Assembly (NCBI GenBank): GCA_043799545.1 | Contig: JAZDNO010000004.1 | Location: 32,001-96,000, forward strand | Source of the DNA: Methanobacteriota archaeon | GTDB lineage: Archaea > Thermoplasmatota > Thermoplasmata > SG8-5 > DAIRED01 | Reading direction: 5' to 3' | Length of the DNA: 64,000 nucleotides | Shown here: one piece after another, positions 31,012 through 55,688 of the stretch | Numbering within the stretch: position 1 is the first letter of the stretch | Layout of the letters: the number at the start of each line of letters is the position of its first letter | Program-made: the position numbers and the translations under genes | The notes under the pieces: model-generated | Seen by the model: only the letters and a program-made list of their open reading frames with translations | The model's database searches: none | What the model was told of the DNA's origin: nothing

Positions 31012-31734
31012 TCACTGCGTCGGCGGCTGCTGGTAGCCCTGAATTGGTGGTTGTTGCTGCGCAGGATAGTATTGTTGAGGCGTTGGCGGCCGATTTGCAG
31101 GCGTTTCAACCGGTTCCAATTGAAGGTGCTTCGGCTTGACTCGCACGGATATCGTCTCGGCCTTGGGCGTTATCAGGTTCCATCCGGCCTTCAGTATCGA
31201 TGCCCCGATGAGGTATAGGACGATGTAGGCGATGGATACCAGCGCGGCTATCGCGAACGGCGTGAAATCCATGCTGAAGCCAAAATCACCCATATCGCCA
31301 TCCGACTGGCTGCTCCCGCTGTTCTGGCCCATGGCGTCAGGATAAACGGTGGTCATCGACGACGCGCTCAACCCATTGCCGTCCCGGACTGTCAATCTCA
31401 CGTTGTAGTCCCGCGAGTCGCTGTACGTATGTGTCGGGTTTGGCTGGACGCTCGTTCCCCCGTCGCCGAAATCCCAGCTGTACGAAGTGATGGATGCCGA
31501 GCCAGTTGTGGATGAATCTGTGAAGCCCACATTCAGCTCGTTCGAGTTCCAGTAGAACGAGCATTGGGGCGGTTGCGCCTGCTCTTCATCCTCGGGCATT
31601 TGCTCGCGGAGGAACTTGCCCGGATTCTGTGCGATTGGCAACATCATCGAGAAGACGAACAACAGGATGACGATGCCGGCAATCAATACCCCAGTTCCGA
31701 GGAATACCTCGTATTTGCGTTCCATCGCTTCCAC
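31012..31734 (-). CDS. Membrane protein with PKD domain and Gln/Pro-rich tail
   Basis: SYSWDFGDGG, NPTHTY, VRLTV; flanking TM helices. Confidence 0.85.
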   Translation of the reverse strand: MEAMERKYEVFLGTGVLIAGIVILLFVFSMMLPIAQNPGKFLREQMPEDEEQAQPPQCSFYWNSNELNVGFTDSSTTGSASITSYSWDFGDGGTSVQPNPTHTYSDSRDYNVRLTVRDGNGLSASSMTTVYPDAMGQNSGSSQSDGDMGDFGFSMDFTPFAIAALVSIAYIVLYLIGASILKAGWNLITPKAETISVRVKPKHLQLEPVETPANRPPTPQQYYPAQQQPPIQGYQQPPTQ

Positions 31735-31811: not shown

Positions 31812-32363
31812 TCACGGTTTCAGAGAATCTGGGCGCCACGCCATCTCCAGCCTGACCTCCCCCCTCTCCACGTCTTCGTTCGAGTAGCTGGTCGCGTCGA
31901 AGCCGACCAGCTCGAAACCGTTGGCCAGGTAGAAATCTATTGCCTTGAGGTTCGACGTCTGGGTCTCCAACACGATGCGCCTGGCGCCGAGCTCCCGCGC
32001 CCGCTTCTTCGCAACGTCCAGCAGCTCTGTGCCGACCCCCATTCGCCTGCGCGACTCGTCGACTGAGATGTCCCAGACGCGGATGCTGTTGTTCCAAGCC
32101 TGGTGCTCGATTTGGATCAGCCCGGCCTCGGTTCCGCCGGCGAACGCCGCATAGACCTCTGTCTCGCCTTTGTATGGCTTCAGCAGGGGCTCGTTGAGGT
32201 CCTTGACGAACGTCTCTGGAAATGGCTCCTTCCGCAGGGCGATTTCCCACCCGTCGCTGGTGCGCTTCAAACTCAGCCGGTACGTTCCGTCCGACGTGTA
32301 GGCGAAGTCGTCCATCTTCCCCGCCAGCTCGCCCTTGTCAAGCTTCCTGATTTCGATCTTCAA
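31812..32363 (-). CDS. GNAT N-acetyltransferase (streptothricin acetyltransferase-like)
   Basis: [10 protein letters not shown]; [19 protein letters not shown]; TTG start overlapping the ChlI stop. Confidence 0.85.
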
Positions 32364-33466
32364 GCAATGTCCTCGCCGTACTTCCTCACGAGCTTGCGGA
32401 GCATCTCCGCGGAGAACGCCTCCTCCTCGAAGGGCTGCTTGCGCATGCGGTGCGGCAGCGCCATCTCCGCGGCCAGTACGACGTCCTCGACGGTCGTCTC
32501 GTCGCGGCCCTCGAGCGCCGCGTTCGTCCTCGCCGAGCGCTCGATGATGATGTCCCCGCGATGGCCGTCGATGTTGAAGTCTATCCCCAGGCGCGTGATG
32601 AGCTCGACGATTTTCATGGAAGTCTTTATCTTCGGGAGCCTCTCCATGGCCTCCAGGATGCGTTTGCGCAGCTCGTTCTGTGCGGGCTCCCACTTCTCCC
32701 TGAATAAGACCGGGTCCTCCTGAAACTCGCGCGAGCGCTTGATTATCTCGACGCGCTTGTCAACTTCCTTGATGCCCTTGACCTCGGCCTGCAGCGCCAG
32801 CCTGTCCAGGAGCTGCGGTCGTAGCTCCCCCTCCTCGGGGTTCATCGAGCCGATTATTACGAACTGAGACGGGTAGTTCAGGGAAATCCCCTCGCGCTCT
32901 ATCGTCACCATCCCCATGGCTGCGGCATCCAGCAGGACGTCGACGACGTTGTCCTCCAGGAGGTTTATCTCGTCCACGTAGAGGATGTTGCGGTGCGCCT
33001 CCGCGAGGATTCCCGGCTCGAACGCCTCCACCCCCTCTTTGAGGACGCGCTCGATGTCTATCGCGCCGACGAGGCGGTCCTCCGTGATGTTGAGGGGCAG
33101 GTCGCACACGTTCATGTCCGTTTTCGTGGCCTTGAGCTCCCCCTTCTCGTGCTTCAGCTTGCACTCGTTGCAGAACTTCTCCGGCTTGTCGGTGGGGCGG
33201 CAGTTGAACTTGCAGCCCGTCACGTCCATCTTCGGAAGTATGTCCTGGAGCGCGCGCACCGCGATGGATTTGCCAGTCCCCTTCTCGCCCCTTATCAGCA
33301 CCCCCCCTATCTGGGGATTGACGACGTTGAGCAGCAGCGCCCTCTTGAGAACTTCCTGGCCGACTATGGCCGTGAACGGATAAATCCTCTCGGGCGAATG
33401 GCGCTTCCTCGAGCCCTGAACGGCCGGCGATGGTGTCTTTTTCTCCGTCCTCTTTTCGGGAGGCAC
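32360..33466 (-). CDS. ChlI/BchI-type AAA+ ATPase (stand-alone, intact)
   Basis: YPFTAIVGQ; GEKGTGKS; GCKFNC...FCNEC; TEDRLVG; YVDEINLL; [17 protein letters not shown]; DGHRGD. Confidence 0.92.
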
Positions 33467-33469
33467 GCC

Positions 33470-36331
33470 TCACCCCTTCCTGCCGTCGATGGACTCGCGC
33501 TCGCGCTGCTTCACGAGCTTGCGGAGCATCTCCTCGCTGAACTCCTCCTCCTCGTACGGGCGCCTGCGCATCCTGTGCGGCAAAGCCATCTCCGAGACGA
33601 CGACGATGTCCTCAGCCGCCACCTCAAGCCGTCCCTCGAATGCCGCGTTCGCCCGCGCCGCCCTCTCGATTATGATGTCCGCCCTGTGGCCGTCCACGTT
33701 GAAGTCTATGCACACCTGCGCTATCAAATCGTAGACGTGCTGAGGCGTCCTGACGTTGGGGAGTATCTCCCTCGCCTTCGTGATGCGCTCGCGCAGCTCC
33801 TGCCGCACTGGCTCGTGCTTGGCGCGGAATCCCTCCGGGTCGACTGTGAACTCCTCCCTCCGGCGCACGATGTCTATGCGAGACGTGACGTCCTGGATGC
33901 CGATGACGTCAGTTTGGAGCGCGATGCGGTCCAGTATCTGCGGCCTCAGCTCTCCTTCCTCTGGGTTCATCGAGCCGACGATGATGAACCTGGCCGGGTG
34001 CGAGAGGGAAATGCCCTCGCGCTCGACGTTCACGTTCCCGGACGAGGCCGAATCCAGCAATATGTCAACGATATAGTCGTCCAGCAAGTTTATCTCGTCC
34101 ACGTAAAGGATGCCTCGGTGCGCCTCCGCTAGGATTCCTGGCTCGAACGATTTTGTGCCTTCTGACAGAATCTTCTCTATGTCTATCGAACCGACGAGGC
34201 GGTCCTCCGTGATGTTCAGCGGCAGGTCAACGACCTGGACCTGGCGCGTGAAAGTCTCCAGCTTGCCTGCTTCGTAGCGAGCCGCGCACTCGGGGCAGAG
34301 CTTGTCCACCTCCTTGGGGTCGCAGATGAACTTGCATCCAGTCACTTCGATGTCCGGCAAGACCTCCGCCAAGCCGCGTACGCCGACGGACTTGCCCGTC
34401 CCCTTCTGTCCGCGTATGAGCACCCCTCCGACTTCCGGGTAGATGGCGTTGAGAATCATCGCCTTCTTCATCTTCTCCTGGCCGACGAGCGCGACGAACG
34501 GGAACAGCACGCGCTTCTGCTTGGTCTGCTCCACCATGCGGCCCGCCGCGGCCTTGAGCTTGAGCTTCTCCTCCTCCTCCAGGCGCTGGCGTATCTGGTT
34601 CTCCAGCTCCTGCTTCAGGTGCGAAAGCTCGCCTTCCTTCATGCGCAATTTTTCACGCGACTCGTCGAAGAGGTTGCGCTGGATTTCGAGGTCGGAGCGG
34701 GCCTTGATGAGGTCCTGCTCCTTCATCCTGATCTTTTCCTCCTCCTCCATCATGAACTCCTCGGTCTTGCGCTCGACCTCGGTCTGGACCAGGCTCTCCA
34801 TCTCCTGCTCCTTCATGTGGAGCTTCTCCTCCTCGGCTGCCAGGGCCTCGTTTTTCATTTCCAGCTCCGCCTGGATGGCAGAGACTTCTTGCTCCTTGAG
34901 GCGGACCTTCTCCTCCTCCTGCGCTATCTGCTCGGTCATGCTCTCGAGGCGCTGCTGGATTTCCTTCAGTTCCTCGTCCTTGAGGCGGAGGCGCTCCTCC
35001 TCCTCCTCGCGCATCTTCTCCATCTCCGTCTCCATGTCCGTCTTTATCTGGTCGATGTCGTTCTCCTTGTCCAGGTAAAGCTCGAAGTGCGCGCGGCCCG
35101 GGTCCTCGAGGACTGCCGGGTAGTTCATGTAGGCGATGAAGTCCAGGATTATCATCGTGGCGAGCACGATGATCATCACGATGCCGCCCAGGAGGTCGAT
35201 GGTTTCCGAACCGCCTTGCTGGTAAAACGCGGTGATGAATATCCCAATGAGCATGGCGAACGAGACCCAGATGCTGGCGAAGACGTTCAGCTTCGTGTCC
35301 CACGTGTGAAGAAGGGCGTCGACCGCGGTGATGATGACGGTTATCAGCAGCAGGTTGACCGTAATCGCCCCGCCCAGCATCGGCGCGAAGATCAGCATTG
35401 ACCGGGGTATCTTGTTGGAAATGTTGAACGTGAAGAGTATGAACTCGATGAACATGAACAGGGCGAGGAACGTGAAGAAGGTCACGGTGATGTTGCTGAC
35501 CCGGAAGTAGTTGAGGAACCCCTCGCTCTTCTCCTCCTCCAGCATCTCCTTAATCTTGCGCTTGCGCTCGTCCTTGCGCAGCTTGGCCCTCTCGCTCTCG
35601 TCCAGGTCATCGTCTTCCTCGAAATCGTCCCCGTCTTCCGCCGCTTCGTCCTCAGCGGTTTCGTCGCCCTCGCCATCGTCTTGCGGTTCGGCCTTCTTCT
35701 TGCCGAAACCGAAGCGTTTCTTCTTCGGAGCCTCCTCCTCGGCGACCTCCTCTTCCGCCGGTTCCCCGGATTCTGCATCATCCTCTTCCACGGCAATGTC
35801 TGGGGTTTCAGCGGCTTGTTCTTCTTCCCCGGCCGCCTTCTTCTTGCCGAAACCGAAGCGCTTTTTCTTCGGGGCTTCCGCCTCCTCAACGGTTTCAGGC
35901 TCCGCTTCAGGTTCTGCGGGGGCCTCTGGTGTCTTTGGTTTTTCCTCGGCTTTCGGCTCATCCTCTGGCACAGGCCCTGGTTTTCCCCCTCCCACGGAAC
36001 CCGCGTCCCAGCTCTCCTCAGTTTTCTTGATGGGATTGAAGCAGTTGGGGCAGATCTCGGCTATCTCGTCCACCCCTTTGCCGCATGAAGGGCATCTGAC
36101 GAAGTGCTCGAGGCTGGCGCTGCAGGATGGGCAGATCTTTGCCCCCGAGCCGACCAGCGTGCCGCACTCTGGGCAGCTCATCTGATCGCCGGGCACCTCG
36201 GCTGTAGGCACCCGCTCATGCGGCGCCTCCTGCGTTGCTGCGTCTTCAGGCAAATCTGCGCCGCAATTGGTGCACTGCGCCGCCTGGTCGTCGTAGTTGA
36301 CGGTTCCGCAATTCGAGCAGTAGCGCTCCAC
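33470..36331 (-). CDS. Multidomain protein: 3 Zn ribbons, acidic low-complexity linker, 4 TM, long coiled coil, intact ChlI-type AAA+
   Basis: Six CxxC pairs at the N-terminus; four hydrophobic segments; about 190 E/K/Q-rich heptad residues; [31 protein letters not shown]. Confidence 0.88.
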   Translation of the reverse strand: MERYCSNCGTVNYDDQAAQCTNCGADLPEDAATQEAPHERVPTAEVPGDQMSCPECGTLVGSGAKICPSCSASLEHFVRCPSCGKGVDEIAEICPNCFNPIKKTEESWDAGSVGGGKPGPVPEDEPKAEEKPKTPEAPAEPEAEPETVEEAEAPKKKRFGFGKKKAAGEEEQAAETPDIAVEEDDAESGEPAEEEVAEEEAPKKKRFGFGKKKAEPQDDGEGDETAEDEAAEDGDDFEEDDDLDESERAKLRKDERKRKIKEMLEEEKSEGFLNYFRVSNITVTFFTFLALFMFIEFILFTFNISNKIPRSMLIFAPMLGGAITVNLLLITVIITAVDALLHTWDTKLNVFASIWVSFAMLIGIFITAFYQQGGSETIDLLGGIVMIIVLATMIILDFIAYMNYPAVLEDPGRAHFELYLDKENDIDQIKTDMETEMEKMREEEEERLRLKDEELKEIQQRLESMTEQIAQEEEKVRLKEQEVSAIQAELEMKNEALAAEEEKLHMKEQEMESLVQTEVERKTEEFMMEEEEKIRMKEQDLIKARSDLEIQRNLFDESREKLRMKEGELSHLKQELENQIRQRLEEEEKLKLKAAAGRMVEQTKQKRVLFPFVALVGQEKMKKAMILNAIYPEVGGVLIRGQKGTGKSVGVRGLAEVLPDIEVTGCKFICDPKEVDKLCPECAARYEAGKLETFTRQVQVVDLPLNITEDRLVGSIDIEKILSEGTKSFEPGILAEAHRGILYVDEINLLDDYIVDILLDSASSGNVNVEREGISLSHPARFIIVGSMNPEEGELRPQILDRIALQTDVIGIQDVTSRIDIVRRREEFTVDPEGFRAKHEPVRQELRERITKAREILPNVRTPQHVYDLIAQVCIDFNVDGHRADIIIERAARANAAFEGRLEVAAEDIVVVSEMALPHRMRRRPYEEEEFSEEMLRKLVKQRERESIDGRKG
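35691..35860. repeat. 26-bp direct repeat (35691-35716, 35835-35860) encoding the duplicated KKKRFGFGKKKA peptide
   Basis: gccttcttcttgccgaaaccgaagcg occurs twice. Confidence 0.9.
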
Positions 36332-38456: not shown

Positions 38457-38541
38457 GTCGTTAGAAGGCTTATTTATATAAAAAGGTTAGCTATTAAGGT
38501 TCTGTTGCGTTTAAGGGTGCTATCACCCGCCGCTAGTGCCC

Positions 38542-38558
38542 TGTTGCACGGCGGGTGC
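38542..38558. repeat. Subterminal inverted repeat, left copy (partner at 46771-46787)
   Basis: TGTTGCACGGCGGGTGC versus reverse complement of GCACCCACCGTGCAACA (16/17 identical), at the same distance from each end. Confidence 0.85.
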
Positions 38559-38632
38559 TGACCTCGATTAAAGGCATCCGAAAGTGGCTTATACGCGCTC
38601 CACGATGCCCGCAGCATAGGAGAGTGCTAGGG

Positions 38633-38941
38633 GTGCGATTGAGTATATTGGCCGTCGGAGTTGTAATCTTAGTGCTGGGTATGGTCGTCGCCTTATTGGG
38701 AATACAGGCCGACCTTGATAACCCCTATGTCACTATGCCAACCAGCAGTGGATATTCATACTACTACCCGCCAACGAGCATCGGTATGGCTGTGTTTGGC
38801 GCTTTAATGATGGCGGCGGGCACATTTTTCATGGGGTTGGGTGCTGGCATCCCCTCCCCCGTCAAATATACTTGTCCCAATTGTGGGGCAAAAGATTCGG
38901 CCAGTAATTTTTGTAAAGGCTGTGGTATGAAGTTGCGATAA
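38633..38941 (+). CDS. Small 2-TM membrane protein with C-terminal Zn ribbon (cargo)
   Basis: Two hydrophobic helices; YTCPNCG...FCKGCG; GTG start after AGGAG. Confidence 0.7.
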   Translation: MRLSILAVGVVILVLGMVVALLGIQADLDNPYVTMPTSSGYSYYYPPTSIGMAVFGALMMAAGTFFMGLGAGIPSPVKYTCPNCGAKDSASNFCKGCGMKLR

Positions 38942-38984
38942 ACGGCCAGTAATACTTTGGGTGCAAGGCGCCCAATTTGCAATA

Positions 38985-39389
38985 CTATTTATTTTGTTTC
39001 TGTGCTTGCACCTTTGTGTAAATTTCGACTATCTGGTTGAAATTTCGTCTGTTCTTTAATTGTGCAACGATTTCATCTGTCTTTTTCAAATCACCAGATA
39101 GAATGCCTTGCTGGACCATTGTAACACAAACTTTCCACTCATTACAGTTCATCCATTCCTTTTGAAAAAACCACATCCAGAATAATGAAACCGCAATGCC
39201 TATCAAACCTAGCATCCACATGGGGAAATCCTGTAAGCATGCGATAACTGAGCCCACAAATAGCGATATTGATACGAGGAGTCGCTGATTGACTATGCCC
39301 AGAATTGAAACAGCGCTGGCGTGCTCACATTCCAGATACGACAACCAATCCTGCAAGGTTAATTTTTCTTCCATCGCGGTCAAACCCAT
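38985..39389 (-). CDS. Hypothetical 2-TM protein (cargo; last gene of the parB operon)
   Basis: Two central hydrophobic segments; 10-nt gap to the upstream gene. Confidence 0.6.
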   Translation of the reverse strand: MGLTAMEEKLTLQDWLSYLECEHASAVSILGIVNQRLLVSISLFVGSVIACLQDFPMWMLGLIGIAVSLFWMWFFQKEWMNCNEWKVCVTMVQQGILSGDLKKTDEIVAQLKNRRNFNQIVEIYTKVQAQKQNK

Positions 39390-39399
39390 TTTATAGGCA

Positions 39400-39636
39400 T
39401 CATTTTTTCTTTTGATTGTATTGCTCTTCCCGAGCCAACCGTTCATAAGCCGCTCTTTTTCGCTCGGAAATTATTAGACAACTGGCTTCGACACTACCGC
39501 ACATCCTATTTGCCATCGAATTCCAGACACCATGATATACTTCAAGCCATGTGTATTTTGCCAATAAATATTTCAAATCTTTTATCATTTTATCGGCGAT
39601 TTCTCGGTCTTTTTGTTCAAAGGCTTTAATTTCCAT
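39400..39636 (-). CDS. 78-aa hypothetical protein (cargo)
   Basis: MEIKAFEQKD start preceded by GAGGTG; overlaps the upstream stop by 11 nt. Confidence 0.6.
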   Translation of the reverse strand: MEIKAFEQKDREIADKMIKDLKYLLAKYTWLEVYHGVWNSMANRMCGSVEASCLIISERKRAAYERLAREEQYNQKKK

Positions 39637-40363
39637 AATTTTCACCTCGCCCATAACGCCTTCTGACATCGTTTCCATCTAATTCAGAGCCACAATTGGA
39701 GCATTTATAATTCTTTCCCAGCCATTTAAGGTCGCCAACGCTGCAAACATGGCATTTTGGGCTACTCCCTTCCAATGGGTCTTTTAACTCACTACCGACC
39801 TCCGCCCCCCTTGACGGTAGCGCTTTTCTTTCGACTGTACCGCCCCTTACCATATATCCTTCTTCGACCCCACCGAGTTTACCCATTAACTCTGCGGGTT
39901 TTCTCCCCGATGGCATTTCAAGCTTTAATTCATGTGACCGTTTTACTTTGCTATAAAACGTTTTCCAGCATCGTAATACGTGCTTGTTTTGATAATCCTG
40001 CAAGTCATCGAATGTTGGCTCAAAATACTCATTATCGTCATTACATACAGTCAGGTATATCCCATACGAATGAAGATATTCCAGTACCTTACTATAAAAT
40101 TCTTCCTCATCCTCCACATGCTTTAATAGGTCTGGTTCGAGGAGCGTATAATACATGTATTTCGATAGTATGGCCTCACGAATCCCCCTTAATCCATTAT
40201 ATGCCCTATTATGGTCTTTAGTATTATCGGGGTCCCAACCGATTCCCCGAATCATGACCTCTAATGTGAACTTGTTCTCTGGCCCCCGGTCCCTAATCCA
40301 CCTCAGGATTTGGCGTCTAACTTTTCCCATCGCTATGGGTGTTTTTTTATTCATTTTTACCAC
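39626..40363 (-). CDS. Hypothetical protein with possible N-terminal wHTH and C-terminal Zn ribbon (cargo)
   Basis: VRRQILRWIRDRG...; KCHVC...YKCSNCG; GAGGTG upstream. Confidence 0.65.
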   Translation of the reverse strand: MVKMNKKTPIAMGKVRRQILRWIRDRGPENKFTLEVMIRGIGWDPDNTKDHNRAYNGLRGIREAILSKYMYYTLLEPDLLKHVEDEEEFYSKVLEYLHSYGIYLTVCNDDNEYFEPTFDDLQDYQNKHVLRCWKTFYSKVKRSHELKLEMPSGRKPAELMGKLGGVEEGYMVRGGTVERKALPSRGAEVGSELKDPLEGSSPKCHVCSVGDLKWLGKNYKCSNCGSELDGNDVRRRYGRGENYGN

Positions 40364-40398
40364 CTCTTCTTCCCACGGGGGCGTAGCAGATGATGCAA

Positions 40399-41385
40399 TT
40401 ACTCTTCTAGCGCCTCCCTAATTTGCTGGCATTTCTCCTCGATAGCATCTACCATTTTTATAATTTGTTGTTTTTGCTTGGGTATCAATTTTACGATGCG
40501 TTTATGATTGACTAATAAGATACGCTCACAACTTTTCTGAAACTCTTCGATAAACATTTGGTTTGAATCGTGCACTCTTGGTACATCTATGGCGGGTGTC
40601 TCGATTCCTTTTCTTTGGCTTACGCGAATATCCTCCACCCGCTCTTTTAATTCCCTATCTGAATAATCGTATTTCTTTACTTCATTGAGAACTACAATTT
40701 GTGTTTTTTCATCCTCGACTTCAGACAATATTTTTAATTTCTCAGGATTTAATGTTGATGTTTTACTAACAAATTCCTTTTGTACAGATTCCGGCGCTTT
40801 TTTCATTAGAGTAACCACATCGCCGACCTCGCTGGTTTGTATTTCGCCCTTTTCTACTCTCTTAAGAAATGATTCTCTTAGATTTTTTTCGGGTATTCGT
40901 GAGACTTCGTACAGTGATGATGTAGGCACCGAAGACGGCGTCTTCGCTTCATCCCTAATTTCTCTTGCTTTTAATATGTGCTGGATAGCGGTTTTATCGG
41001 AGTACCCCAGGGCATCTGCGAGGTCACCTTGATTTTTATATATGCCCGCCACCCATATTTCCTGTATCGCATGCTCCCTTTCAGTCGATGATAAATCTTG
41101 GCGATGTAAATTTTCTATAAGGGATTCCACCAGAACCTGGTTATCCGAAACGTTTTTTATTACTGCCGGGATTGTAGCTTTATTAGCTAGCTTACTGGCC
41201 CTCCAACGACGCTCACCACATATAATTTCGTACCTATTTCCTTTTTTTCTAACGACAATTGGTTGTAATATTCCATGAATTTTAATCGAATTGGCGAGTT
41301 CTTTAATATTCTCTTTTGTGAACTTCTCTCTCGGTTGCATCGGATTCGGCGTTAGCATCTCAATATCTAGTTCTTGATACTCCAT
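40399..41385 (-). CDS. ParB/Spo0J-family CTP-binding protein (cargo)
   Basis: PNPMQPRE; GILQPIVVR; GERRWRA box; ENLHRQDL; HTH QGDLADALG. Confidence 0.92.
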   Translation of the reverse strand: MEYQELDIEMLTPNPMQPREKFTKENIKELANSIKIHGILQPIVVRKKGNRYEIICGERRWRASKLANKATIPAVIKNVSDNQVLVESLIENLHRQDLSSTEREHAIQEIWVAGIYKNQGDLADALGYSDKTAIQHILKAREIRDEAKTPSSVPTSSLYEVSRIPEKNLRESFLKRVEKGEIQTSEVGDVVTLMKKAPESVQKEFVSKTSTLNPEKLKILSEVEDEKTQIVVLNEVKKYDYSDRELKERVEDIRVSQRKGIETPAIDVPRVHDSNQMFIEEFQKSCERILLVNHKRIVKLIPKQKQQIIKMVDAIEEKCQQIREALEE

Positions 41386-41619
41386 GTTAAATTCCCCCGG
41401 ATACTCTGTTTAACGTACATCATCATACTCGTATAAATAACTACATTTCACCTTTCGACTACCCCTATTCGAATTTTACGAAGAGACGAACATCAATTTA
41501 GGAAGCATTCAGGGCTTTTATCACATTATTTTTCAAGGGAAACCGTAGTCAATCCCCCGATAAATATATATATTGCCTGTTTTTTCAGTAAATTATTTAT
41601 AGTAATGCTGCTTTAACCG

Positions 41620-42168
41620 ATGGTAGTAACTATGGAGTTCGTTCCCATGTTAATAAACCAAGAAGAAGGCTGGCGTTTGCCCGAATTATACGATACCATG
41701 ACACCAACTGAAAAGGCATCAGCTATTAAATCTTGCGTTTTAACTTTTCTTAATAACAATGGACCGGCTCCAAAATCAGTAATCGGAAAAGCGATAGGCA
41801 CGACTCATGAAGACAGCTTAAAAAGGGCTTTGGATTACTTGGTTCATACTCGTCAAATTTATTCAGAGAAATGGGGTTCGCGAAATCCAGTATATTTCCC
41901 GAATGGTTGTTTGGGGCACCCCCTCTATCAGGGGCGTATAATTTGTGGTCGGAAGGAATACACAATTAGAACATATATAGACCGAGTCACTGGTAGAAAT
42001 TTAACAATAACTGAGTATGAAAAAGATTATTCGGGTAAACAAGACCCCAAAGGAGGCATTAGAATAGACGCCGTGGATTTAGACGCCATTATTAGAGAGT
42101 TAGTGAGGATAAATGACTCATTGCGCCAGAGTGTTGAAATTAACGACAGAGGTCTAATATCAAGGTGA
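41620..42168 (+). CDS. wHTH protein with C-terminal PC4/PUR-like beta domain (cargo)
   Basis: VLTFLNNNGPAPKSVIGKAIG...LKRALDYL; YTIRTY...NLTITE...KGGIRIDAVDLDAIIREL pattern. Confidence 0.55.
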   Translation: MVVTMEFVPMLINQEEGWRLPELYDTMTPTEKASAIKSCVLTFLNNNGPAPKSVIGKAIGTTHEDSLKRALDYLVHTRQIYSEKWGSRNPVYFPNGCLGHPLYQGRIICGRKEYTIRTYIDRVTGRNLTITEYEKDYSGKQDPKGGIRIDAVDLDAIIRELVRINDSLRQSVEINDRGLISR

Positions 42169-42172
42169 GAAA

Positions 42173-43504
42173 ATGAACACGCAACTATCAATGTATGTGG
42201 AGGAAGAGGACGCGCAAAAGGCTGTATGTAGATTCGGGAATCTTAAAATTCCCCGAGGATTATTTTCAATGCCGACAATAAGTCCAGGTATTCAGAAAAA
42301 TTTAGATGTGGAAGCATTGATGGCTAACATTAGCGGTGGCTCCTTCCCACATGCAATTACGCCACATCTCAGCACAAAACAGAGATATATTGTGAAATTA
42401 ATGCCAATGCTCCCCTCTGGCAAAGGCGTTATACATCCGTTTGTTGTGCCAGACCCGGAATATGAGGCTCTTTCCGTCAATTGTCTTGCGAGATTGAATT
42501 ATATGCAATTTGAAAATCCACCCCCCACAGTGCGTATGATTATGGATTCGGGGCTGACCGATGACCCGGATACAGATAGATTTAATGTAACAACAAGATG
42601 GCAAACCATTAGGCAGCGCTATGGCCTTGCTCCTTTGTTAGATTGGTCGTTAAATCTTCACGACTCCATCAATTCCGATTTGTATCTTGCACCGACCCCG
42701 ATAATGCGGGCCGATGAAAAACTTAAAAGCATTGAAGAGGCTTTTACCAGTGGGTATTTCCTTCTCTCAAATGCCGTCAGTTCGGCTCGATTCGCGTTGA
42801 ATGGGATTCACACGTTGCTCCATATCGAAATTTTTTCCGATACGGATGAAGCTGACGCTGCTCGAAACAAGATACTTACTGAGTTCGAGTCTTGGAAATC
42901 CGAGAAACAGCAATATCGGGGTTCAATAGTAGGCATAAAGCTCTATGACCCAAACAACTTATTCGGAGAAGCTGACTCGGGTTCAGTAAGGCGCAGATTA
43001 TTCAGCGAATTTGTAACAGAGCTTTCATCAAAGGTTCGAGGAGCCGATGGTTTTGTCATTGGTTATAATTTTGCCAATCTATCTCTTGGAATTTTGGATA
43101 GCGGCGCAGATTTAGCTACATTCAAAGTGGCTGGGGGAATGCGTATCGATGTGCCAATTAAATCAAGCAAGGGGAAGCGTGGTAAACGAAGGATTCCTTC
43201 CGTATTCGACGGAAGCACACTTTCCGAGGTGGGAAGCGACATCATCAAACAAACTTACAATAAATATGGTTCATTCCCTGTGCCGGCGTGTATGCAACCG
43301 AAGCCATATTGGGACGAAAATTATAAGGAGGCGTCGATATACGCGAGAAGAACCCGTTGTGCCTCATTGATTGCAGTTGGTGAAGAATATCGAGCAGCGG
43401 CGCTCGATAATGCAATCCCGTTGAAAGATTCCTTACGAAATCGAATTATGCAAAGTGAGGCGAGACAAGAATTGATTGATTTGTGTCCAACAATAAACGG
43501 TTAA
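42173..43504 (+). CDS. Divergent TGT/'beta protein'-like TIM-barrel protein (cargo)
   Basis: RFGNLKIPRG...MPTISP start; VVPDPE, IMDSG, SDLYLAPTPI, GILDSGADLATF; AGGTGA RBS; fold inferred by eye. Confidence 0.45.
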   Translation: MNTQLSMYVEEEDAQKAVCRFGNLKIPRGLFSMPTISPGIQKNLDVEALMANISGGSFPHAITPHLSTKQRYIVKLMPMLPSGKGVIHPFVVPDPEYEALSVNCLARLNYMQFENPPPTVRMIMDSGLTDDPDTDRFNVTTRWQTIRQRYGLAPLLDWSLNLHDSINSDLYLAPTPIMRADEKLKSIEEAFTSGYFLLSNAVSSARFALNGIHTLLHIEIFSDTDEADAARNKILTEFESWKSEKQQYRGSIVGIKLYDPNNLFGEADSGSVRRRLFSEFVTELSSKVRGADGFVIGYNFANLSLGILDSGADLATFKVAGGMRIDVPIKSSKGKRGKRRIPSVFDGSTLSEVGSDIIKQTYNKYGSFPVPACMQPKPYWDENYKEASIYARRTRCASLIAVGEEYRAAALDNAIPLKDSLRNRIMQSEARQELIDLCPTING

Positions 43505-43644
43505 TACAAATATATATTGACTTCACCCCGATGTCATAATCGCTGCCAGCTCATTTGCCTATACCGGGCCTTTCGACCCAGATTAATGTTGACATCAAAG
43601 TTGAACTCCTTCTCTATTCTCTGGGCGGTGTGAAAAATAATAAA

Positions 43645-43809
43645 TCATGCCTTACGAACGACAGCGACTATACTCTTACCCTCGTTACGGATGAGCCAGT
43701 TTACCTCATCTCCTGCCCTCAAGTTAAGGGATTCGACTACGGCCTCGGGAATAGTGGTTCGTAACGAGGGACTGGTTGTATTTGCTTTTGAAATCTTGGT
43801 ATTAGGCAT
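43645..43809 (-). CDS. AbrB/MazE/SpoVT-family DNA-binding protein, 54 aa (not in ORF track)
   Basis: MPNTKISKANTTSPSLRTTIPEAVVESLNLRAGDEVNWLIRNEGKSIVAVVRKA. Confidence 0.85.
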   Translation of the reverse strand: MPNTKISKANTTSPSLRTTIPEAVVESLNLRAGDEVNWLIRNEGKSIVAVVRKA

Positions 43810-43840
43810 GGATACAGGATATGCCTCTGGCCGTATTTAT

Positions 43841-43923
43841 AGTTACCTATATACTGATAATCGTAGTTACCATAACCTTTATATCCTCCCTTGCTATATA
43901 GGTAACTGTGGTAGTAACCACAG
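43841..43923. promoter_or_regulatory. Divergent AbrB/transposase promoter region with inverted repeats
   Basis: 13-bp perfect IR AGTTACCTATATA (43841-43853) / TATATAGGTAACT (43895-43907); palindrome CTGTGGT-N4-ACCACAG (43906-43923). Confidence 0.7.
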
Positions 43924-43934
43924 AGGCAACAAAT

Positions 43935-45095
43935 ATGATGATGGACGATGCGAGACAGGCGCGGGGATTAGAGATACTAAAGGACGAGAGCGCAGTAGTG
44001 CGCATAAGCCAGAAAACTTACCACGTCAAGAGCCAGAGCGGGGAGGGGTTCTACACGGTTAAAAAGCAGATGGGGCTTTGGGGTTGCACATGCCCAGACT
44101 TCACCAACCGAAAGGTGTACTGCAAGCACATCTACGCCGTTGAGTATAGCCAGAAGCTCCGAAAACTCATCAAAACCGAGGAGAGGCCGAGGCCCGTAAT
44201 CGACGCAACCATGCACCCGATGTGCTGCCCGTCGTGCCACGCCGGGGAAATCAAGAGGAATGGCAACCGCGCAACCAAGAACGGGCCAATCCAGCGCTAT
44301 AAGTGCGAGGCTTGCGGATTCAGATTCACCATAGACAAGGGCTTTAGTGGTATGAAATCCGTTCCCGAGAGCATTTTAGCTTCGGTGGACCTCTATTTCA
44401 AGGGGCTTTCTTACCGCAAGATAGTGGACCACCTCAAGCAGTTCTATGGCGTGACTGTCAGCCAGACCACGCCGATGCGCTGGGTGACGAAGTACCTTAA
44501 GATGCTCGGAGATTACGCCGAAAAGCACCAGCCAGACGTGGGGCGCATGTGGCACAGCGACGAAATGGCTCAGAAGGTGAACGGTAAGCAGATGTGGGTT
44601 TGGAACGTCATGGACCACGAAACGCGCTTCTTGCTGGCCTGTAAGATTTCAGAGGGGCGCAGCATCCGCGAAACGAGGGCTGCGATAAGGGTAGCCAAGG
44701 AGAAGGCCGGGAAGCGCCCGGACTTCTTTGTTACCGATGGATTGCCAACATACCCGATAGCAGCCCGAAAGGAGTTCGGACCCGGGGAGAAGTTCGACAC
44801 GCAGAGCCGCCACCACAGATACAAGGATTTCCGCACAGCGCCCAACAACAATATCCTAGAGCGCTTGAATGGAACGCTCAGAGAGCGCTTCAAGGTGATG
44901 CGGAGCTTCGACAACCCCGAGAGCGCCGCCCGGATGCTTGCGGGCATCCAGACGTACTATAACTACGTCAGAGAGCACTCGGTACTAGGCACGACCCCGG
45001 CAATCGAGGCCGACATAGACCTAAACCTCGGAGAGAACCGCTGGGCCGGGATGGTTGGCCTGGTTGCGAATCAAAAGCAGTTCGGGGGCGTGTGA
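43935..45095 (+). CDS. IS6-family DDE transposase with N-terminal SWIM finger and Zn ribbon
   Basis: SWIM CTCPDF...CKHIYAV; CPSC...YKCEAC; HTH GLSYRKI; DDE in WHSDE / VTDG / NNILER. Confidence 0.93.
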   Translation: MMMDDARQARGLEILKDESAVVRISQKTYHVKSQSGEGFYTVKKQMGLWGCTCPDFTNRKVYCKHIYAVEYSQKLRKLIKTEERPRPVIDATMHPMCCPSCHAGEIKRNGNRATKNGPIQRYKCEACGFRFTIDKGFSGMKSVPESILASVDLYFKGLSYRKIVDHLKQFYGVTVSQTTPMRWVTKYLKMLGDYAEKHQPDVGRMWHSDEMAQKVNGKQMWVWNVMDHETRFLLACKISEGRSIRETRAAIRVAKEKAGKRPDFFVTDGLPTYPIAARKEFGPGEKFDTQSRHHRYKDFRTAPNNNILERLNGTLRERFKVMRSFDNPESAARMLAGIQTYYNYVREHSVLGTTPAIEADIDLNLGENRWAGMVGLVANQKQFGGV

Positions 45096-45156
45096 AAGCG
45101 CGCTCCCAATTTTCTAGTTTTTACATATAACGTATGTTATACCGGAATACTAAAAT

Positions 45157-46491
45157 CTATTTAATATCGATTTTCTCACACTCATCCAGTAATTTTATTG
45201 CTTCGGAAAAAGGGATTAATGATTTTGGGAAAGGAGTAAATGATGCAACCCTAAGAAGTGCAGCTGCTTTGCTAACACATAAGCGATGTTTATATCCAGT
45301 ATCTTTATTTTCTTTGGCAAAAATATCTAATTTGCCCTCTATAAATTGTACAAATCGGTCTACGCGCTCGTTCTTAGGCAAGGTATAATTGATTCGATGC
45401 TCATTCTTTACGACGTGATAATTTATTTTAATAGGTGCATATTTATATTTTACTTTATTACCATTAATTTCCTCGGTATGAATCGGACTAAATATTGCAA
45501 TATCCGATAATAATTCACCAAGGTCATAAATATAATCACCCCTCAGGGATAATTGGTCAATATCAATGAACTTGACGCTATTAGCATGTCTCGATACTTT
45601 TTCCATAAAAACATTTCTACCATGACAATCCCCATGCTGGATTGTATTAAATGGCGGTATAAATTTTGGATAATTAGTTAAAATTCGCTCAACGTAAAAT
45701 CGGACATTTTTATATTTAAAACCATTTACAATATATTCCGCTTCAGGATAAATCAAAGGTAACATCGTGTCATTAAATTTCAATATGTCTCGATAGAAAT
45801 GTTCGAGATATGGGGGTTTCGTCAAAGCTAGCAATTGATTCGCAGAGTCGACTTTTTTTGTTTGTGAATACATTAAATTAAATGCTCCCCATAAACTTTC
45901 TAAATGTTTATTATCAAAGCCAAAAGACCTATTCCAGATAAATTCGTATAGTGGTTCAAAATCAGCTAGGTATTCAATTCGCATTACATGGAGTCGGTCA
46001 TTTTTATAGGTAAATTGCTCGGGCTTATGCGGCTGAGCAAATAAATGCAATATTGGCCCCGGAACTTCGGATTCAATTTTATCGTAGTCGGGTATATCCG
46101 ATTTACTTATTTTTAAAACAGTAGTATACTCAGATAATGTCGTTTGTCCATCTTCTTTCTCCCCCCCAATTGAAATGGAATGCTTTGTGCGATAAACTTG
46201 GTCGCCGCTATATCCACCAGACAATCTGTACAGTTCCTTGATTTTCGATTGAATATTAGTAGTTATCATTAATCCGGTATGGACATGCGTGAAACTTAGA
46301 ACTTGTTTTTCAATTTCATCATCTGCTAGTGTCCTCTTACCTTTTAACAGATTTTTTACTAATTTAGCTTGTTCTTTAATATCTGCATCCAGTTTATCAT
46401 TCGGCTCATTGTCTTTAATATTATATGTTTTTTTAATGATTTTCGCAATCCTTTGAACTGTTATAGGCGATGGTTTATTCCTACTTCCCAT
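45157..46491 (-). CDS. Protein-kinase-like (APH/phosphotransferase) protein (cargo)
   Basis: LSGGYSGDQVY Gly loop; VLKI; QHGDCHGRN catalytic loop; FIDID; DYIYDLG. Confidence 0.8.
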   Translation of the reverse strand: MGSRNKPSPITVQRIAKIIKKTYNIKDNEPNDKLDADIKEQAKLVKNLLKGKRTLADDEIEKQVLSFTHVHTGLMITTNIQSKIKELYRLSGGYSGDQVYRTKHSISIGGEKEDGQTTLSEYTTVLKISKSDIPDYDKIESEVPGPILHLFAQPHKPEQFTYKNDRLHVMRIEYLADFEPLYEFIWNRSFGFDNKHLESLWGAFNLMYSQTKKVDSANQLLALTKPPYLEHFYRDILKFNDTMLPLIYPEAEYIVNGFKYKNVRFYVERILTNYPKFIPPFNTIQHGDCHGRNVFMEKVSRHANSVKFIDIDQLSLRGDYIYDLGELLSDIAIFSPIHTEEINGNKVKYKYAPIKINYHVVKNEHRINYTLPKNERVDRFVQFIEGKLDIFAKENKDTGYKHRLCVSKAAALLRVASFTPFPKSLIPFSEAIKLLDECEKIDIK

Positions 46492-46815
46492 TATTACACC
46501 AGAATGAAAGGGTTTATTCTTCGTAGATGATTAAATCCTGATTATATTGTGCATCTCTCATTGTATAGCATTTTAATCCTTCGCGCATGTATGAGTTCAA
46601 GTTTTTTCCACCACATGGCCCAGCATTTAAACTCTTTATTCTACCTACCATCTTAATCACCAACGCATCCCATCCGACATGCAGTTCAGGATTAGACAAC
46701 TAGTAAATAAATCTAGCGACAACGAATATATACTGATAGTGGTGGCAGTATAATCGGTTGGCTCAGATTGGCACCCACCGTGCAACACCCCGTTTAGATG
46801 CAACAAAACACCCGC

Positions 46816-47784
46816 CTACGCAACAGAACCGCTATTAAACCCCTTCTGGTGCTGGAGGGCGAAATCCACGACCTCCGTCACGTCGTCCATCGTGGCCCAG
46901 CTCCTTCCGTCGTAGGTGGCGTTCGCGATGGCCGCCTCGCGCAGGTTTGCGACGGCCCTCTCGTCGGCTCCGACCCTCCGTCCGACGCGCCCGATTGCCT
47001 GCACGACCTTTTGGGGGACATCCGCGCGCCCGATGAGTTTCCGCGCCGCCGCGAGCTTGCCCCTGACGATGGCGCTCTCCTTCTCGTGATGGCCCGCAAA
47101 CTCGGCCGGTCCCGCCTTGTACGCCTCCACCCTCCTAACTATCTCGAGGCGCTCCTCGATGTCGCTCAGCGAGCGGGCCGAGGCCCGCAAAACGAACCGC
47201 CGCCTCAGATCTTCCGGGAGCTCGCCCTCGTCGTCGTTCATCGTCGCGATGAGCGTTATCGCCGTCGGCCACGCGCCGTTGGCTTCGACCTTGCGGTTCT
47301 CCGTTGCATCCAGGACGAACTTCAAAATGTCCTCCGAAAACAGGTTCGCACGTTCCATTAGGGCGAAACCGCGGTTCGCCTTCGACAGCAGCCCCGGTCT
47401 GGGGGGGTTGCCCTTCCCGCCCCGGAGCTTCTCGATGGTCGCGGATATCGGAATCTCGACGAACGGCATCCGAGCCCTGACGCGGCTCTTGGGGTTGCTA
47501 GCGGCCTTGCAGGCAGGGCACCTCTCGCGGGCTGTGGGTATGCAGCTGACGGGGCAGCCTTCCGCGACGTCCATCTCAGGCAGCAGCGCGGCAAGCCCCC
47601 TCGCGGCGGTCCTCTTGCCCGTGTCCCTCTCGCCCGACAGGAGGAGGCTGGTAATCCTCGGGTTCACTACAGAAAGGAGCAGCCCGCGCTTGAGGGCGTT
47701 CTGGCCGACGACCCCCGTGAACGGGAAAGGCGGGTCGCCCGCCGAGCCTGGTTTGCGCCTGGATTTCGATGCCTCGTCCGCCAT
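46816..47784 (-). CDS. ChlI-like AAA+ protein with degenerate Walker B; last 4 aa and stop supplied by the transposon TIR
   Basis: FPFTGVVGQ; GERDTGKR; GCPVSC...CPAC; LMERANL where YVDEINL is expected. Confidence 0.82.
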   Translation of the reverse strand: MADEASKSRRKPGSAGDPPFPFTGVVGQNALKRGLLLSVVNPRITSLLLSGERDTGKRTAARGLAALLPEMDVAEGCPVSCIPTARERCPACKAASNPKSRVRARMPFVEIPISATIEKLRGGKGNPPRPGLLSKANRGFALMERANLFSEDILKFVLDATENRKVEANGAWPTAITLIATMNDDEGELPEDLRRRFVLRASARSLSDIEERLEIVRRVEAYKAGPAEFAGHHEKESAIVRGKLAAARKLIGRADVPQKVVQAIGRVGRRVGADERAVANLREAAIANATYDGRSWATMDDVTEVVDFALQHQKGFNSGSVA

Positions 47785-47881: not shown

Positions 47882-50800
47882 TTAGGGCCCCGGCGAATTT
47901 TCCCCTTTGCCGGGGTCTGGCGAGTCGCCCGAAACGTCTTCCGCCATCTCATCCGGGGCCTTGGGGTCTTCTTCGGCATCTTGGCCGGCATCCTTCCCTT
48001 TTTTACGTATCATCACGTAAATGAGCGCCATGGCTGCCATCAGGACGATGATTATTATCCACCAGTAATCCCCGAACCCTCCGCCTCCGACTCCGCCGCC
48101 GGTGACATCTATGCTTACGGTATGAGTCGCGGCCCGGTTGCCCAGCGCGTCCTCGGCATAGAACATCAGCGTGGCGTCTGCATCGAAGACCAGCGGCGCT
48201 GTGTACTGGCTCCACGTCGTTCCGCCGTCGAGGCTGTAGAAGATGGTTGCACCGCCCACATCCGCATCGATGGCCATGAGAGTGACGTTCTCGCCAGCAT
48301 GCAGTACTATAGCACCTCCAGTGGGTGTGGGAGACATCGAGGCTGTCGGCGGGGTCACGTCCACGAAAATCTCGATTGTCGATTCTGCGGACTCGTGACC
48401 CAGGTTGTCGGCAGCGTAGTATCGGATTGCGTGGGCCCCTTCAGTCGCAAATGTCAGCGCAACCGAGTATGCGGTCCATGCGCCTGCATCCACCGAGTAA
48501 CGCATTTCCGCGACGCCGGAACCGCTGTCGCTTGCAGCCAGGGTCAGGCTCGTGGCCGTTGTAATATAGGTGGGCGCGTTTCCATACTTTGGGCTTCCCA
48601 CCGTCGCGTCAATCGCCGGGGCGCTGAGGTCGACGATTATGTCTAATTTTTTGATTGCCTCGGTATTGCCCAGGTTGTCCAGCGCTCGGTATTCGATGGC
48701 GTACGCGCCGGCCGTCGAGAAGTTCAATGGACCGGAGTATGTTGCCCAGCTGGTCCATGTGCCCGTGCTGTCTCTGTAGACGCGGAACCTGATGAGGTCC
48801 ACGCCCGCACCTGAGTCGTTCGCTGTGAGGTTGATTTGCGTCGAAGAGCTGATGTAAACCGGCGCCGTGCCATACGACGGCGCTCCGATTTCGACAGAGG
48901 TGACAGGGACGATGGTGTCGACGAACACGTAGAATGTATCAAGGGTCGAGTTCTGACCAATATTGTCACTGGCCATGACGCTGATGTTGTGCGCCCCGGA
49001 GGCGGTCAAAGCGAAATTGCCTGAGTATGCAACCCACGCTCCGCTGTCGATGCGGTACCACATCCCCGCCACGCCTGAGCCCGCGTCCGTCGCAGTCAAG
49101 TTGAAGACGGTCGATGGCATGATGCAGACGGGATTCAGCCCGAACCTGGGGGCCGTAATTGTCAGCGTGACGACTGGCGGCTCCTCGTCTGGCCACACGG
49201 TCACGTTATTTGGCGCCTCCTGATTTCCGGCGAGGTCGATGCTGAAGTATTCGATGTACGCAATCCCGATCTGGTCCTCCAGAGTGAAGTTGCCCGTGTA
49301 AATGTTCAGCCCGCTCCAGCCGCCGTCCCATATTCGGTACTTGATGGCCGCTACGCCAGACAAATCCGTCGTCGCCGTTAGGTTGAAAGGAGTCGACCTG
49401 TTGACGTAGACGGTCGCCGTGCCGTTTTTCGGAGTCCCGATGGAAATCGTCGTGGCCGGGGCATCGGAGTCGAAGCCATGGCGCAAGTCCGCCACCGCCT
49501 GGGCAGCCTCAGTTTGACCCAACTTGTCTGTGGCTATGGTGTAGAATTCATAGAATCCCTGCCCATCAGGGAAGTTGAACGGCCACGACCAAAGTGCAGC
49601 ATTATCGATACCGGCACTCGTCCAGGGTACGGTCCAGGTTCCGTTGATTGCGCCGTACCTGTAGAACAGTTCGACGTTGGCGATTCCGCTCGACGGCGAA
49701 GCGTCGATGGCCGTCGCCGTGAGCGTTATCGGTGTGGTTGTGCGCCAGTATGCACCAGTCACGTCGCAGCCGCTCGACGGCGCCGTGCTGTCTCCGGTGA
49801 TGAATACCGTGAACGAATCGGAGCCCCAGGTAGAATCCGTCCCCGTGACTATGGTCCAGCCGCCCGTGTACCCGGCTGTGAATGTGCTGTTGGGTCCGGT
49901 GGCGTTGTCGAAGGTCCCGAGCACAGGTGCAACGGACCATGCGACAGAGATTGGGCCGAGGTCTCCGCCCGTGACGTTGGAAGCGATTGCCCGAGCCATG
50001 ACAGCCTGTCCGCCGTCCACATATACTGTGCCGATTTCCGTGCCATTCGACGGGTGCACGATTTGGATGGCATCCGGCGTCCAGATTTGCGACGTGACGC
50101 CGAAGCTGTCGTGATTCGTGGCGTTGCCGCCGAAGAGGCCGAGGCCTACCGACCGCATGTCTCCCCACGAGGCGTTCGCCGGGCTAGTAACGTTCATTGA
50201 GAAGTTGGCGCTCTGTCCAGGGTTGAGATTTCCCAAGTCCAACACGATGGTGCCGAAATTAGCATCTATTGTAGTGCCGTTCCAATGGCAGTAGAGCGTC
50301 GCGTTCCACCCGCCATTCAATCCCGTTGTCACCCACATCAGTGTAAAGCGGTCTGGCGCTGTCCCGTTGTTGGTGGCGCTGGCGCTGTAGCTTCTCGCTC
50401 CGTTAATCCCTATGCCTCGCGTCATTGTCTGTTCCGGCCCAGGAGGGTCTTGGAAAATGTTGCCACCGACCCCGTCGATTGATAGGTCCGGGAAGTAGCG
50501 GTTGATTGTGATGTTGATGGTGTAATTGATTCCCGGCGCGTAAACGACGGTCATGTGCGCGTAGCCAGTCGCGGCTCCCGAGGATAGGGTGTTGTTTAAT
50601 CCCCATGCACCCGTGAGCGATGCGGATGCGCCTGAGAAGTTCTGCAGCGACCACGTCACGTTAGCATCAAATAAATAGGTCCAGTTGGCGTCGTAGGCCG
50701 ACGCGAAGACGTCGCCAGAGAAGCCAACATCTGCGACTGTGTCCGTGAGATTCTCGCCGGAGTTGCCCGCGCCGGTGTTCATGCGGATGTGGGCGATTGA

Positions 50801-55607: not shown

Positions 55608-55688
55608 TTCAATCCCGCCTTTCAATTCCACAATAAATCTACGGATATTATGGTTGCGCTCGCGCAACCGATGTCAACCCGCCGTGGC

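Follow-up and report, generated by a model that had tools for sequence, protein, structure and literature searches.

A ChlI-type AAA+ motor built into a four-helix membrane scaffold and inherited with two surface proteins in uncultured Thermoplasmata

Nearly all that is known of ChlI/ChlD motors concerns the soluble engines that drive magnesium and cobalt chelatases. What, then, is such a motor doing at the end of a membrane protein? The question is raised by a gene in a 64,000-nucleotide stretch of DNA from an uncultured archaeon of the Thermoplasmata (hereafter the window: positions 32,001 to 96,000 of contig JAZDNO010000004.1, assembly GCA_043799545.1). Its product, P0001 (33470..36331, minus strand), is a fusion of 953 residues in which zinc ribbons, an acidic linker, a domain of four transmembrane (4TM) helices, a coiled coil and a ChlI-type AAA+ module follow one another. 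In our assessment there is about an even chance that P0001 serves as the motor subunit, embedded in the membrane, of a conserved machine peculiar to certain lineages of uncultured Thermoplasmata, one that is made of chelatase-type AAA+ parts and is not a tetrapyrrole chelatase.

A first-pass annotation, made from the letters of the window, had proposed this fusion architecture, and the open reading frame (ORF) with its translation, the Pfam and NCBIfam matches, hydropathy, AlphaFold2 (AF2) models and the orthologues all bear it out. P0001 is encoded by one uninterrupted frame of 953 codons with a GTG start, and its N-terminus, (M)ERYCxxC, agrees with the orthologue consensus MERxCxxC. Three zinc ribbons of the CxxC...CxxC type (36035..36328, minus strand, as are all the parts that follow; residues 2–27 and ∼50–99) match Zn_ribbon_3, DZR and Zn_Ribbon_1, with Zn_ribbon_3/DZR placed by Pfam at residues 2–27 and 53–97, and reach a predicted local distance difference test score (pLDDT) of 82–94 in the full-length AF2 model. 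The acidic linker (35600..36034; residues ∼100–244), delimited by composition and AF2, is modelled as disordered, residues 106–240 containing 25% E and 10% D at a pLDDT of ∼30. Within it are two identical copies of a basic-aromatic motif, KKKRFGFGKKK (residues 155–165 and 203–213; window 35690–35870), which we rejected as a feature of the family, since it is limited to the closest relatives, P0006–P0009.

The membrane part consists of a basic pre-membrane helix and the 4TM domain (35117..35599; residues ∼245–405), placed by hydropathy, an AF2 domain model and alignments. Hydropathy gives four hydrophobic segments at ∼277–405, and modelling of residues 262–440 with 30 homologues returns four transmembrane helices (pLDDT 84.7; predicted template modelling score 0.75). 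The coiled-coil stalk (34526..35086; residues ∼416–602), recognised from repeats in the translation, the heptad period and AF2, is made of six repeats of ∼28–31 residues of the type EEEEKLRMKEQE, which are kept in the family consensus. Over its ∼190 residues it contains 26% E and has a hydrophobic period of ∼7.2 residues, and the full-length model shows two long helices, 416–511 and 523–602, with a low-confidence break at 510–525. The ChlI/BchI-type AAA+ module, which carries a four-cysteine insert (33506..34507; residues 609–942), is well folded in the same model and matches Mg_chelatase, AAA_5 and AAA_lid_2 of Pfam at ∼694–938. Because the number of transmembrane helices is even, the N- and C-termini would lie on the same side of the membrane, as first proposed, and because the zinc ribbons and the ATPase are located there, that side must, from the predicted topology, be the cytoplasm. 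The topology is further supported by a basic stretch ahead of the first transmembrane helix and by an N-x-S/T sequon in loop 1, conserved as FNIT in the family consensus.

Is so long a frame an artefact of assembly or annotation that merges unrelated genes? No evidence in favour of this was found, and we consider the chance of it negligible. The frame is single and unbroken, and a search with residues 260–953 of P0001 returned more than 45 orthologous clusters, 627–1101 residues long, that span the 4TM domain, coiled coil and ChlI in identical order. The clusters derive from assemblies of NCBI, JGI, ENA and Logan and belong to the Thermoplasmata or Thermoplasmatota wherever they are labelled. 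When whole genomes were searched across the junction from the membrane domain to ChlI, 31 of the 401 sampled from the class proved to encode the full-span fusion in a single open frame. A chimeric assembly, the way in which the proposed architecture might have fallen, is excluded by orthologues on many independent contigs of metagenome-assembled genomes (MAGs), which stem from soda-lake and sediment samples. Within the window's own order, 17 of the 22 genomes carry the full-span fusion, the remaining five being 59–79% complete; it is also present in every one of the seven genomes of family f61, in one of them as a partial match, and in members of f55, f62, f63 and f7. Among the 401 genomes it was not seen in families f2, f3, f5, f57 and f69.

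The core common to the orthologues runs from the 4TM domain through the coiled coil to ChlI. Acidic linker and zinc ribbons vary, with none, one or three ribbons across the orthologues, and are best described as a variable add-on. Soluble ChlI proteins with arrays of zinc ribbons (P0064–P0099) were considered as truncated versions of P0001 and rejected on account of their different gene context. Three loci illustrate this soluble family (L068, L069 and L070, with P0065, P0075 and P0082), in which four tandem zinc ribbons are fused to ChlI, sometimes with HhH and DUF7479. In L068 and L069 a gene for a Big/CarboxypepD_reg protein of ∼790–800 residues lies 4 nt upstream of the zinc-ribbon ChlI; in L069 and L070 a protein of ∼600 residues with AAA_lid_2 is encoded downstream, in L069 together with a zinc ribbon and a coiled coil, and L069 additionally encodes a vWA protein of 415 residues.

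The gene for P0001 is the third of a tightly packed cassette of four on the minus strand: P0004 (37005..38456; 483 residues), a gap of 5 nt, P0003 (36334..36999; 221 residues), 2 nt, P0001, 3 nt, and P0002 (32360..33466; 368 residues), a soluble ChlI paralogue with no transmembrane helix and intact motifs. P0003 and P0004, each defined with family alignments (A1 and A6 for the former, A2 for the latter), are exported proteins with a signal peptide, a beta-rich ectodomain bearing N-x-S/T sequons, one C-terminal transmembrane helix and a basic tail; in P0003 there is a single ectodomain. Pfam has no family for either. The look-alikes of P0004 in the Atlas are Ig-like surface proteins of the NEW3, CARDB and FixG_C types, and its orthologues give faint Ig-like Pfam matches; that P0004 may be a multi-domain Ig-like protein is a lead only.

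In all 14 loci of the order and class that we compared, the succession of a surface protein of ∼480 residues, a second of ∼220 residues, the membrane ChlI fusion and the soluble ChlI was kept, although in two of them the first gene is truncated or mis-called. The same four-gene order was found in three distant MAG loci (L009, L011 and L013), where the surface proteins are ∼30% identical. Beyond the cassette in the window, a GNAT acetyltransferase ORF (31812–32693, minus strand) lies downstream of P0002, and its longest frame overlaps the end of that gene, the real start being probably near 32350. It is followed by a PKD-domain protein of 240 residues (31012–31734, minus strand). Neither gene is conserved beside the cassette in other loci.

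How far is the motor of P0001 a true ChlI? The whole of the TIGR02030 model (BchI-ChlI) aligns to residues 610–932 with 409.6 bits, and residues 604–929 align with residues 16–343 of the solved ChlI 8osf (E 2.7e-100); the closest solved relatives, 8osf, 6l8d and 1g8p, are all true ChlI proteins. The AAA+ is 60% identical to that of the adjacent P0002 over 335 residues, and 53–55% identical to archaeal ChlID proteins labelled ‘putative cobaltochelatase’. Walker A (GxxGxGK[ST]), Walker B (DE), the sensor 1 Asn, the arginine finger and the sensor 2 Arg are complete in P0001 and are invariant in 30 orthologues, and the same set is also complete in P0002. The earlier claim of an intact AAA+ resembling the neighbouring ChlI is thus confirmed, and by sequence criteria P0001 carries a complete ChlI module, predicted to be catalytically competent. 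The MoxR model (PF07726, AAA_3) does not match P0001 and reaches only 19.8 bits, below its cut-off of 27, with P0002.

The first-pass annotation had taken the similarity of the two ChlIs as a sign of duplication followed by membrane tethering. In a maximum-likelihood tree, however, the stand-alone ChlIs that accompany the fusions form a clade of their own with support 100/99. The fused ChlI domains lie outside it and cluster with other N-terminally extended archaeal ChlIs and ChlID proteins; a recent local duplication was therefore rejected. Both clades are retained across lineages, and from their separation we take the P0001/P0002 pair to be an old paralogy, inherited together. The proposal needs amending in this respect and in the route to the membrane, which is set out below for the 4TM family.

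Does the membrane-anchored motor then serve a true class-I metal chelatase for Co, Ni or Mg, whose catalytic subunit escaped detection because it has diverged too far or is badly assembled? The full-length alignment with solved ChlI, the identity to archaeal ChlID and the existence of a ChlD-like vWA partner speak for this. That partner, P0127 (55689..58451, minus strand), has 920 residues and consists of a vWA domain with an intact MIDAS motif (DxSxS) followed by two dead ChlI-like AAA+ modules, so that its domain order is inverted relative to ChlD. However, no match to CobN/ChlH (PF02514) was found in the 2.06-Mb genome, which at 94% completeness makes the absence short of proof, and the same search scored in five of 14 control genomes, including three archaea. 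The TIGR02030 equivalog cut-off (466.95) is missed by both P0001 and P0002, the latter at 405.7 bits. Besides the equivalog score and a detectable ChlH/CobN, P0001 also departs from a class-I chelatase in not being a soluble motor of ∼350 residues, a feature that its partner P0002 has. In addition, in each of the 14 loci the gene has surface-protein genes rather than tetrapyrrole genes as its fixed neighbours, and no tetrapyrrole-related domain or gene was present among the cassette neighbours in any locus examined. With these points weighed together, we regard a chelatase as quite improbable.

The likeness to chelatases is nonetheless close, and the ChlI/ChlD motor is the closest known system. 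With ChlI/BchI and ChlD/BchD (8osf, 6l8d, 1g8p/2x31) and archaeal ChlID (TIGR02442) the P0001 motor shares the full-length AAA+ alignment and all the catalytic motifs. The principle of ChlD, an active ChlI beside dead ChlI-like modules joined to a vWA/MIDAS domain, is common to magnesium chelatase and the present proteins, and an acidic low-complexity linker occurs both in ChlD and in P0001. In contrast to magnesium chelatase, the motor subunit is here itself an integral membrane protein that carries, besides its 4TM domain, a long coiled coil as well as zinc ribbons at the N-terminus; its genes are tied to those of two exported surface proteins, and no ChlH/CobN was found in the genome. In P0127 the vWA domain precedes two dead AAA+ modules, whereas in ChlD it follows a single one.

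The membrane domain proved to have a history of its own. When 401 genomes of the phylum were searched for the P0003 family, 29 of the 53 genomes in family f23 proved to carry it, and the genome of the window yielded a second copy (G000, contig C18). A locus search with an alignment of four P0003-family sequences returned only seven loci, all of them in Thermoplasmata MAGs. In f23 and on C18, genes for P0004-like and P0003-like proteins are followed by one for a homologous 4TM protein of 300–458 residues that has no ChlI and ends in PAS or DUF4332. A 4TM gene lies directly downstream of the P0004-like and P0003-like genes in every locus: the window, L009/L011/L013, the 13 loci L071–L083 and 14 ChlI-less loci (L045–L059). 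The trio on C18 (137815–139480 and beyond; L045:7815–10328) comprises a P0004-like protein cut by the contig end, a P0003-like protein of 218 residues and a 4TM protein of 343 residues without a recognisable C-terminal domain.

A profile of the 4TM domain alone (A7) recovered only 116 representatives among 1.84 billion proteins, ChlI-fused proteins among them (P0034 at 7e-39, P0025 at 5e-28). The C-termini of 65 scanned representatives were PAS in 26, ChlI in 6, DUF4332 in 4 and TPR in 3. H342, the His of an LH..D/x.K.N loop, is invariant and D397, in the fourth helix, nearly so in alignments that include the ChlI-less members. The ChlI-less members thus share with P0001 a homologous 4TM domain with an invariant His and a near-invariant Asp, Pro and Ser, and a gene position downstream of P0004-like and P0003-like genes; they differ in lacking the ChlI module, the long repeat stalk, the second ChlI gene and the zinc-ribbon and acidic N-terminus. 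At the level of sequence, then, the 4TM domain is shown to be a small autonomous family with interchangeable cytoplasmic ends (ChlI, PAS, TPR, DUF4332). The presence of 4TM proteins with PAS, TPR or DUF4332 heads after the same two surface genes argues for the membrane trio as the more ancient unit, to which ChlI has been joined as one head among several, the tethering of ChlI having arisen by fusion to a pre-existing 4TM scaffold family.

These exchangeable ends bring in the main rival to a motor subunit, in which the surface proteins and the 4TM domain form a receptor, its cytoplasmic end is an exchangeable signalling module, and the ChlI pair acts as an ATP-dependent output or switch without exerting force on the surface complex. 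PAS is the commonest C-terminus, with TPR and DUF4332 among the others, conservation of the membrane trio does not depend on ChlI, and the surface proteins resemble Ig-like proteins of the adhesin type, all of which speaks for a receptor. However, none of the variants has a conserved neighbouring gene for a kinase, a cyclase, a transcription factor or any other recognised output. A complete and highly conserved AAA+ motor that comes with another active paralogue and with a ChlD-like scaffold would, moreover, be an unusually costly output, and ChlI-type rings in their known roles remodel proteins. We therefore hold a receptor of this kind to be possible but on balance unlikely; a chelatase, a filament or division apparatus and an artefact are less likely than this.

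In some genomes of f23 (L047:4388–6375; L046, L050, L054 and L057), two Arch_flagellin (PF01917) genes arranged in tandem lie beside the ChlI-less trio in convergent orientation. Genes located upstream in these loci encode two paralogous, N-terminally anchored proteins of ∼380–400 residues and a protein of ∼1000 residues (with DUF2341 in L053), and together the trio, the flagellin genes and these upstream genes look like a larger surface-structure cluster. This raises the possibility that P0001 is part of an archaellum-like or pilus-like filament apparatus, or of envelope or division remodelling, with the ChlI motor replacing or assisting the usual ATPases. Yet the flagellin genes are convergent and occur at only a subset of the loci, in another family of the phylum, none lies near a ChlI-fused cassette, and no FlaI, FlaJ or Cdv gene was present in any locus examined. 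Such a role seems to us very unlikely.

Returning to the reading of P0001 as a motor subunit, two further proteins encoded in the window may belong with the cassette. Besides P0127 there is P0128 (46816..47784, minus strand), a ChlI-like pseudo-ATPase of 322 residues in which Walker A and Walker B are degenerate. Both ChlI-like modules of P0127 lack Walker A, Walker B, the arginine finger and sensor 2. The degeneracy of P0127 and P0128 is conserved in their orthologues, and the four-cysteine insert is kept in all modules. The ChlD-like protein and the dead ChlI both co-occur with the fusion and are frequently its neighbours. A P0127-like protein is present in 29 of the 31 genomes that bear the fusion; where the two are on one contig (eight genomes), they are within ∼21 kb of each other in seven. 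In L071 and L072 the genes for the vWA-AAA2 protein, the dead ChlI, the P0004-like and P0003-like proteins, the fusion and ChlI follow one another on one strand.

In the window, P0128 and P0004 are separated by a low-GC, IS6-like cargo transposon of 8.3 kb (38490..46838, no strand assigned), recognised by its GC content (0.40–0.47, against ∼0.59 in the flanks), an 8-bp duplication (gctattaa) and 13-bp inverted ends. When the element and one copy of the duplication are removed in silico, P0128 regains a TAA stop, a 30-nt spacer with a TATA-like box precedes the start of P0004, and the order of the window becomes vWA-AAA2, dead ChlI, cassette, as in L071 and L072. This reconstruction indicates that P0128 adjoined P0004 before the insertion and that the transposon is not part of the system. 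The insertion is at the very 3' end of P0128, turning the native ...FNS-stop into ...FNS-GSVA-stop with extra residues from the inverted repeat, and the TATA-like box (tttatata) remains ∼20–27 nt upstream of the P0004 start in spite of it. Directly upstream of P0128 is a gene for a surface protein of 1618 residues (47882–52738, minus strand) with LamG, a right-handed beta-helix of the NosD type and PKD/Big domains; a pyruvate phosphate dikinase gene (52821–55667) lies between it and P0127.

How might these parts work together? Given that the fixed gene order and tight coupling persist whatever the cytoplasmic head, the 4TM domain of P0001 would act as a hub that associates in the membrane with the transmembrane anchors of P0003 and P0004. 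P0001 and P0002 may form a mixed active ring of the ChlI type, with the dead modules of P0127 and P0128 playing the part of a ChlD-like scaffold or adaptor, and the MIDAS site of the vWA domain, the zinc ribbons or the acidic linker could recruit a client or the basic tails of the surface proteins. The stalk would then relay ATP hydrolysis, so that the surface-protein complex, or else a cytoplasmic client, is remodelled, assembled or regulated. In its most explicit form this would be a transmembrane coupling device, in which a mixed ChlI ring with its ChlD-like pseudo-ATPase scaffold pulls or twists the stalk on a 4TM hub that holds the anchors of two Ig-like surface glycoproteins. We know of no precedent for such a device among AAA+ machines, and we put this version forward as speculative and doubtful.

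Several points weigh against a motor subunit. The interchangeable PAS, TPR and DUF4332 ends fit a signalling or scaffolding role equally well as a mechanical one, and no domain of the cassette indicates a specific process or client. The stalk may be an extended rod of ∼25 nm or a folded hairpin, the AF2 monomer model being compatible with both. The P0127/P0128 pair is remote from the cassette in families f52 and f53, 64 kb away in G416 and on other contigs elsewhere. Finally, the view of a system of six components rests partly on the shared phyletic range of genomes that are related and not independent, so that the co-occurrence is suggestive and short of statistical proof.

The broader functional analogues of the proposed machine are the AAA+ proteins of the MoxR class with their vWA partners, such as NorQ/NorD, CoxD/CoxE, RavA/ViaA and CbbQ/CbbO, in which a ring of the helix-2-insert clade and a MIDAS vWA adaptor act together to remodel or mature a client protein, in many cases at the membrane or close to it. 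The combination of an AAA+ ring with a MIDAS vWA adaptor is common to both, whereas P0001 and P0002 are of the ChlI type by sequence; to our knowledge, no MoxR/vWA system has its motor fused to a polytopic membrane domain or is accompanied by a fixed pair of surface proteins. With FtsH and with MotA, ExbB and ZorA, P0001 shares only the general idea of a motor or a long helical tail on a small transmembrane bundle with single-pass partners, and it differs from FtsH in AAA+ clade and in having no protease domain. A stator-like fold of the MotA/ExbB/ZorA kind for the 4TM domain was considered and dropped as unsupported, because the fold searches gave generic helical bundles. With the 4TM model, Foldseek gave a best E of 0.43 and TolQ chains at ∼1.4–2.7, which is noise level, and VIA-align a best Z of 10.3 with generic four-helix bundles, tetraspanins and NACHO, within noise for helical bundles. 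Searches of full-text literature revealed no account of a ChlI embedded in the membrane, nor of the cassette, in keeping with the first impression that the architecture is not known from any described protein.

What the locus presents is a chelatase motor, ∼50% identical to true ChlI, that has been built into the membrane and long co-inherited with two surface proteins and a ChlD-like scaffold. If P0001 is the motor subunit that we propose, for which the chances are evenly balanced, the chelatase motor would be a remodelling module of general use, which archaea have put to a new task at the cell envelope. The analysis also delimits a small, previously unnamed family of 4TM scaffolds with swappable cytoplasmic heads. 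A coupling device of the kind outlined above, if true, would give the archaeon energy-dependent, inside-out control of a surface complex, for adhesion, envelope assembly or contact sensing, and the four to six proteins described here would be a concrete set of candidates for a novel form of energy coupling through the membrane of archaea.

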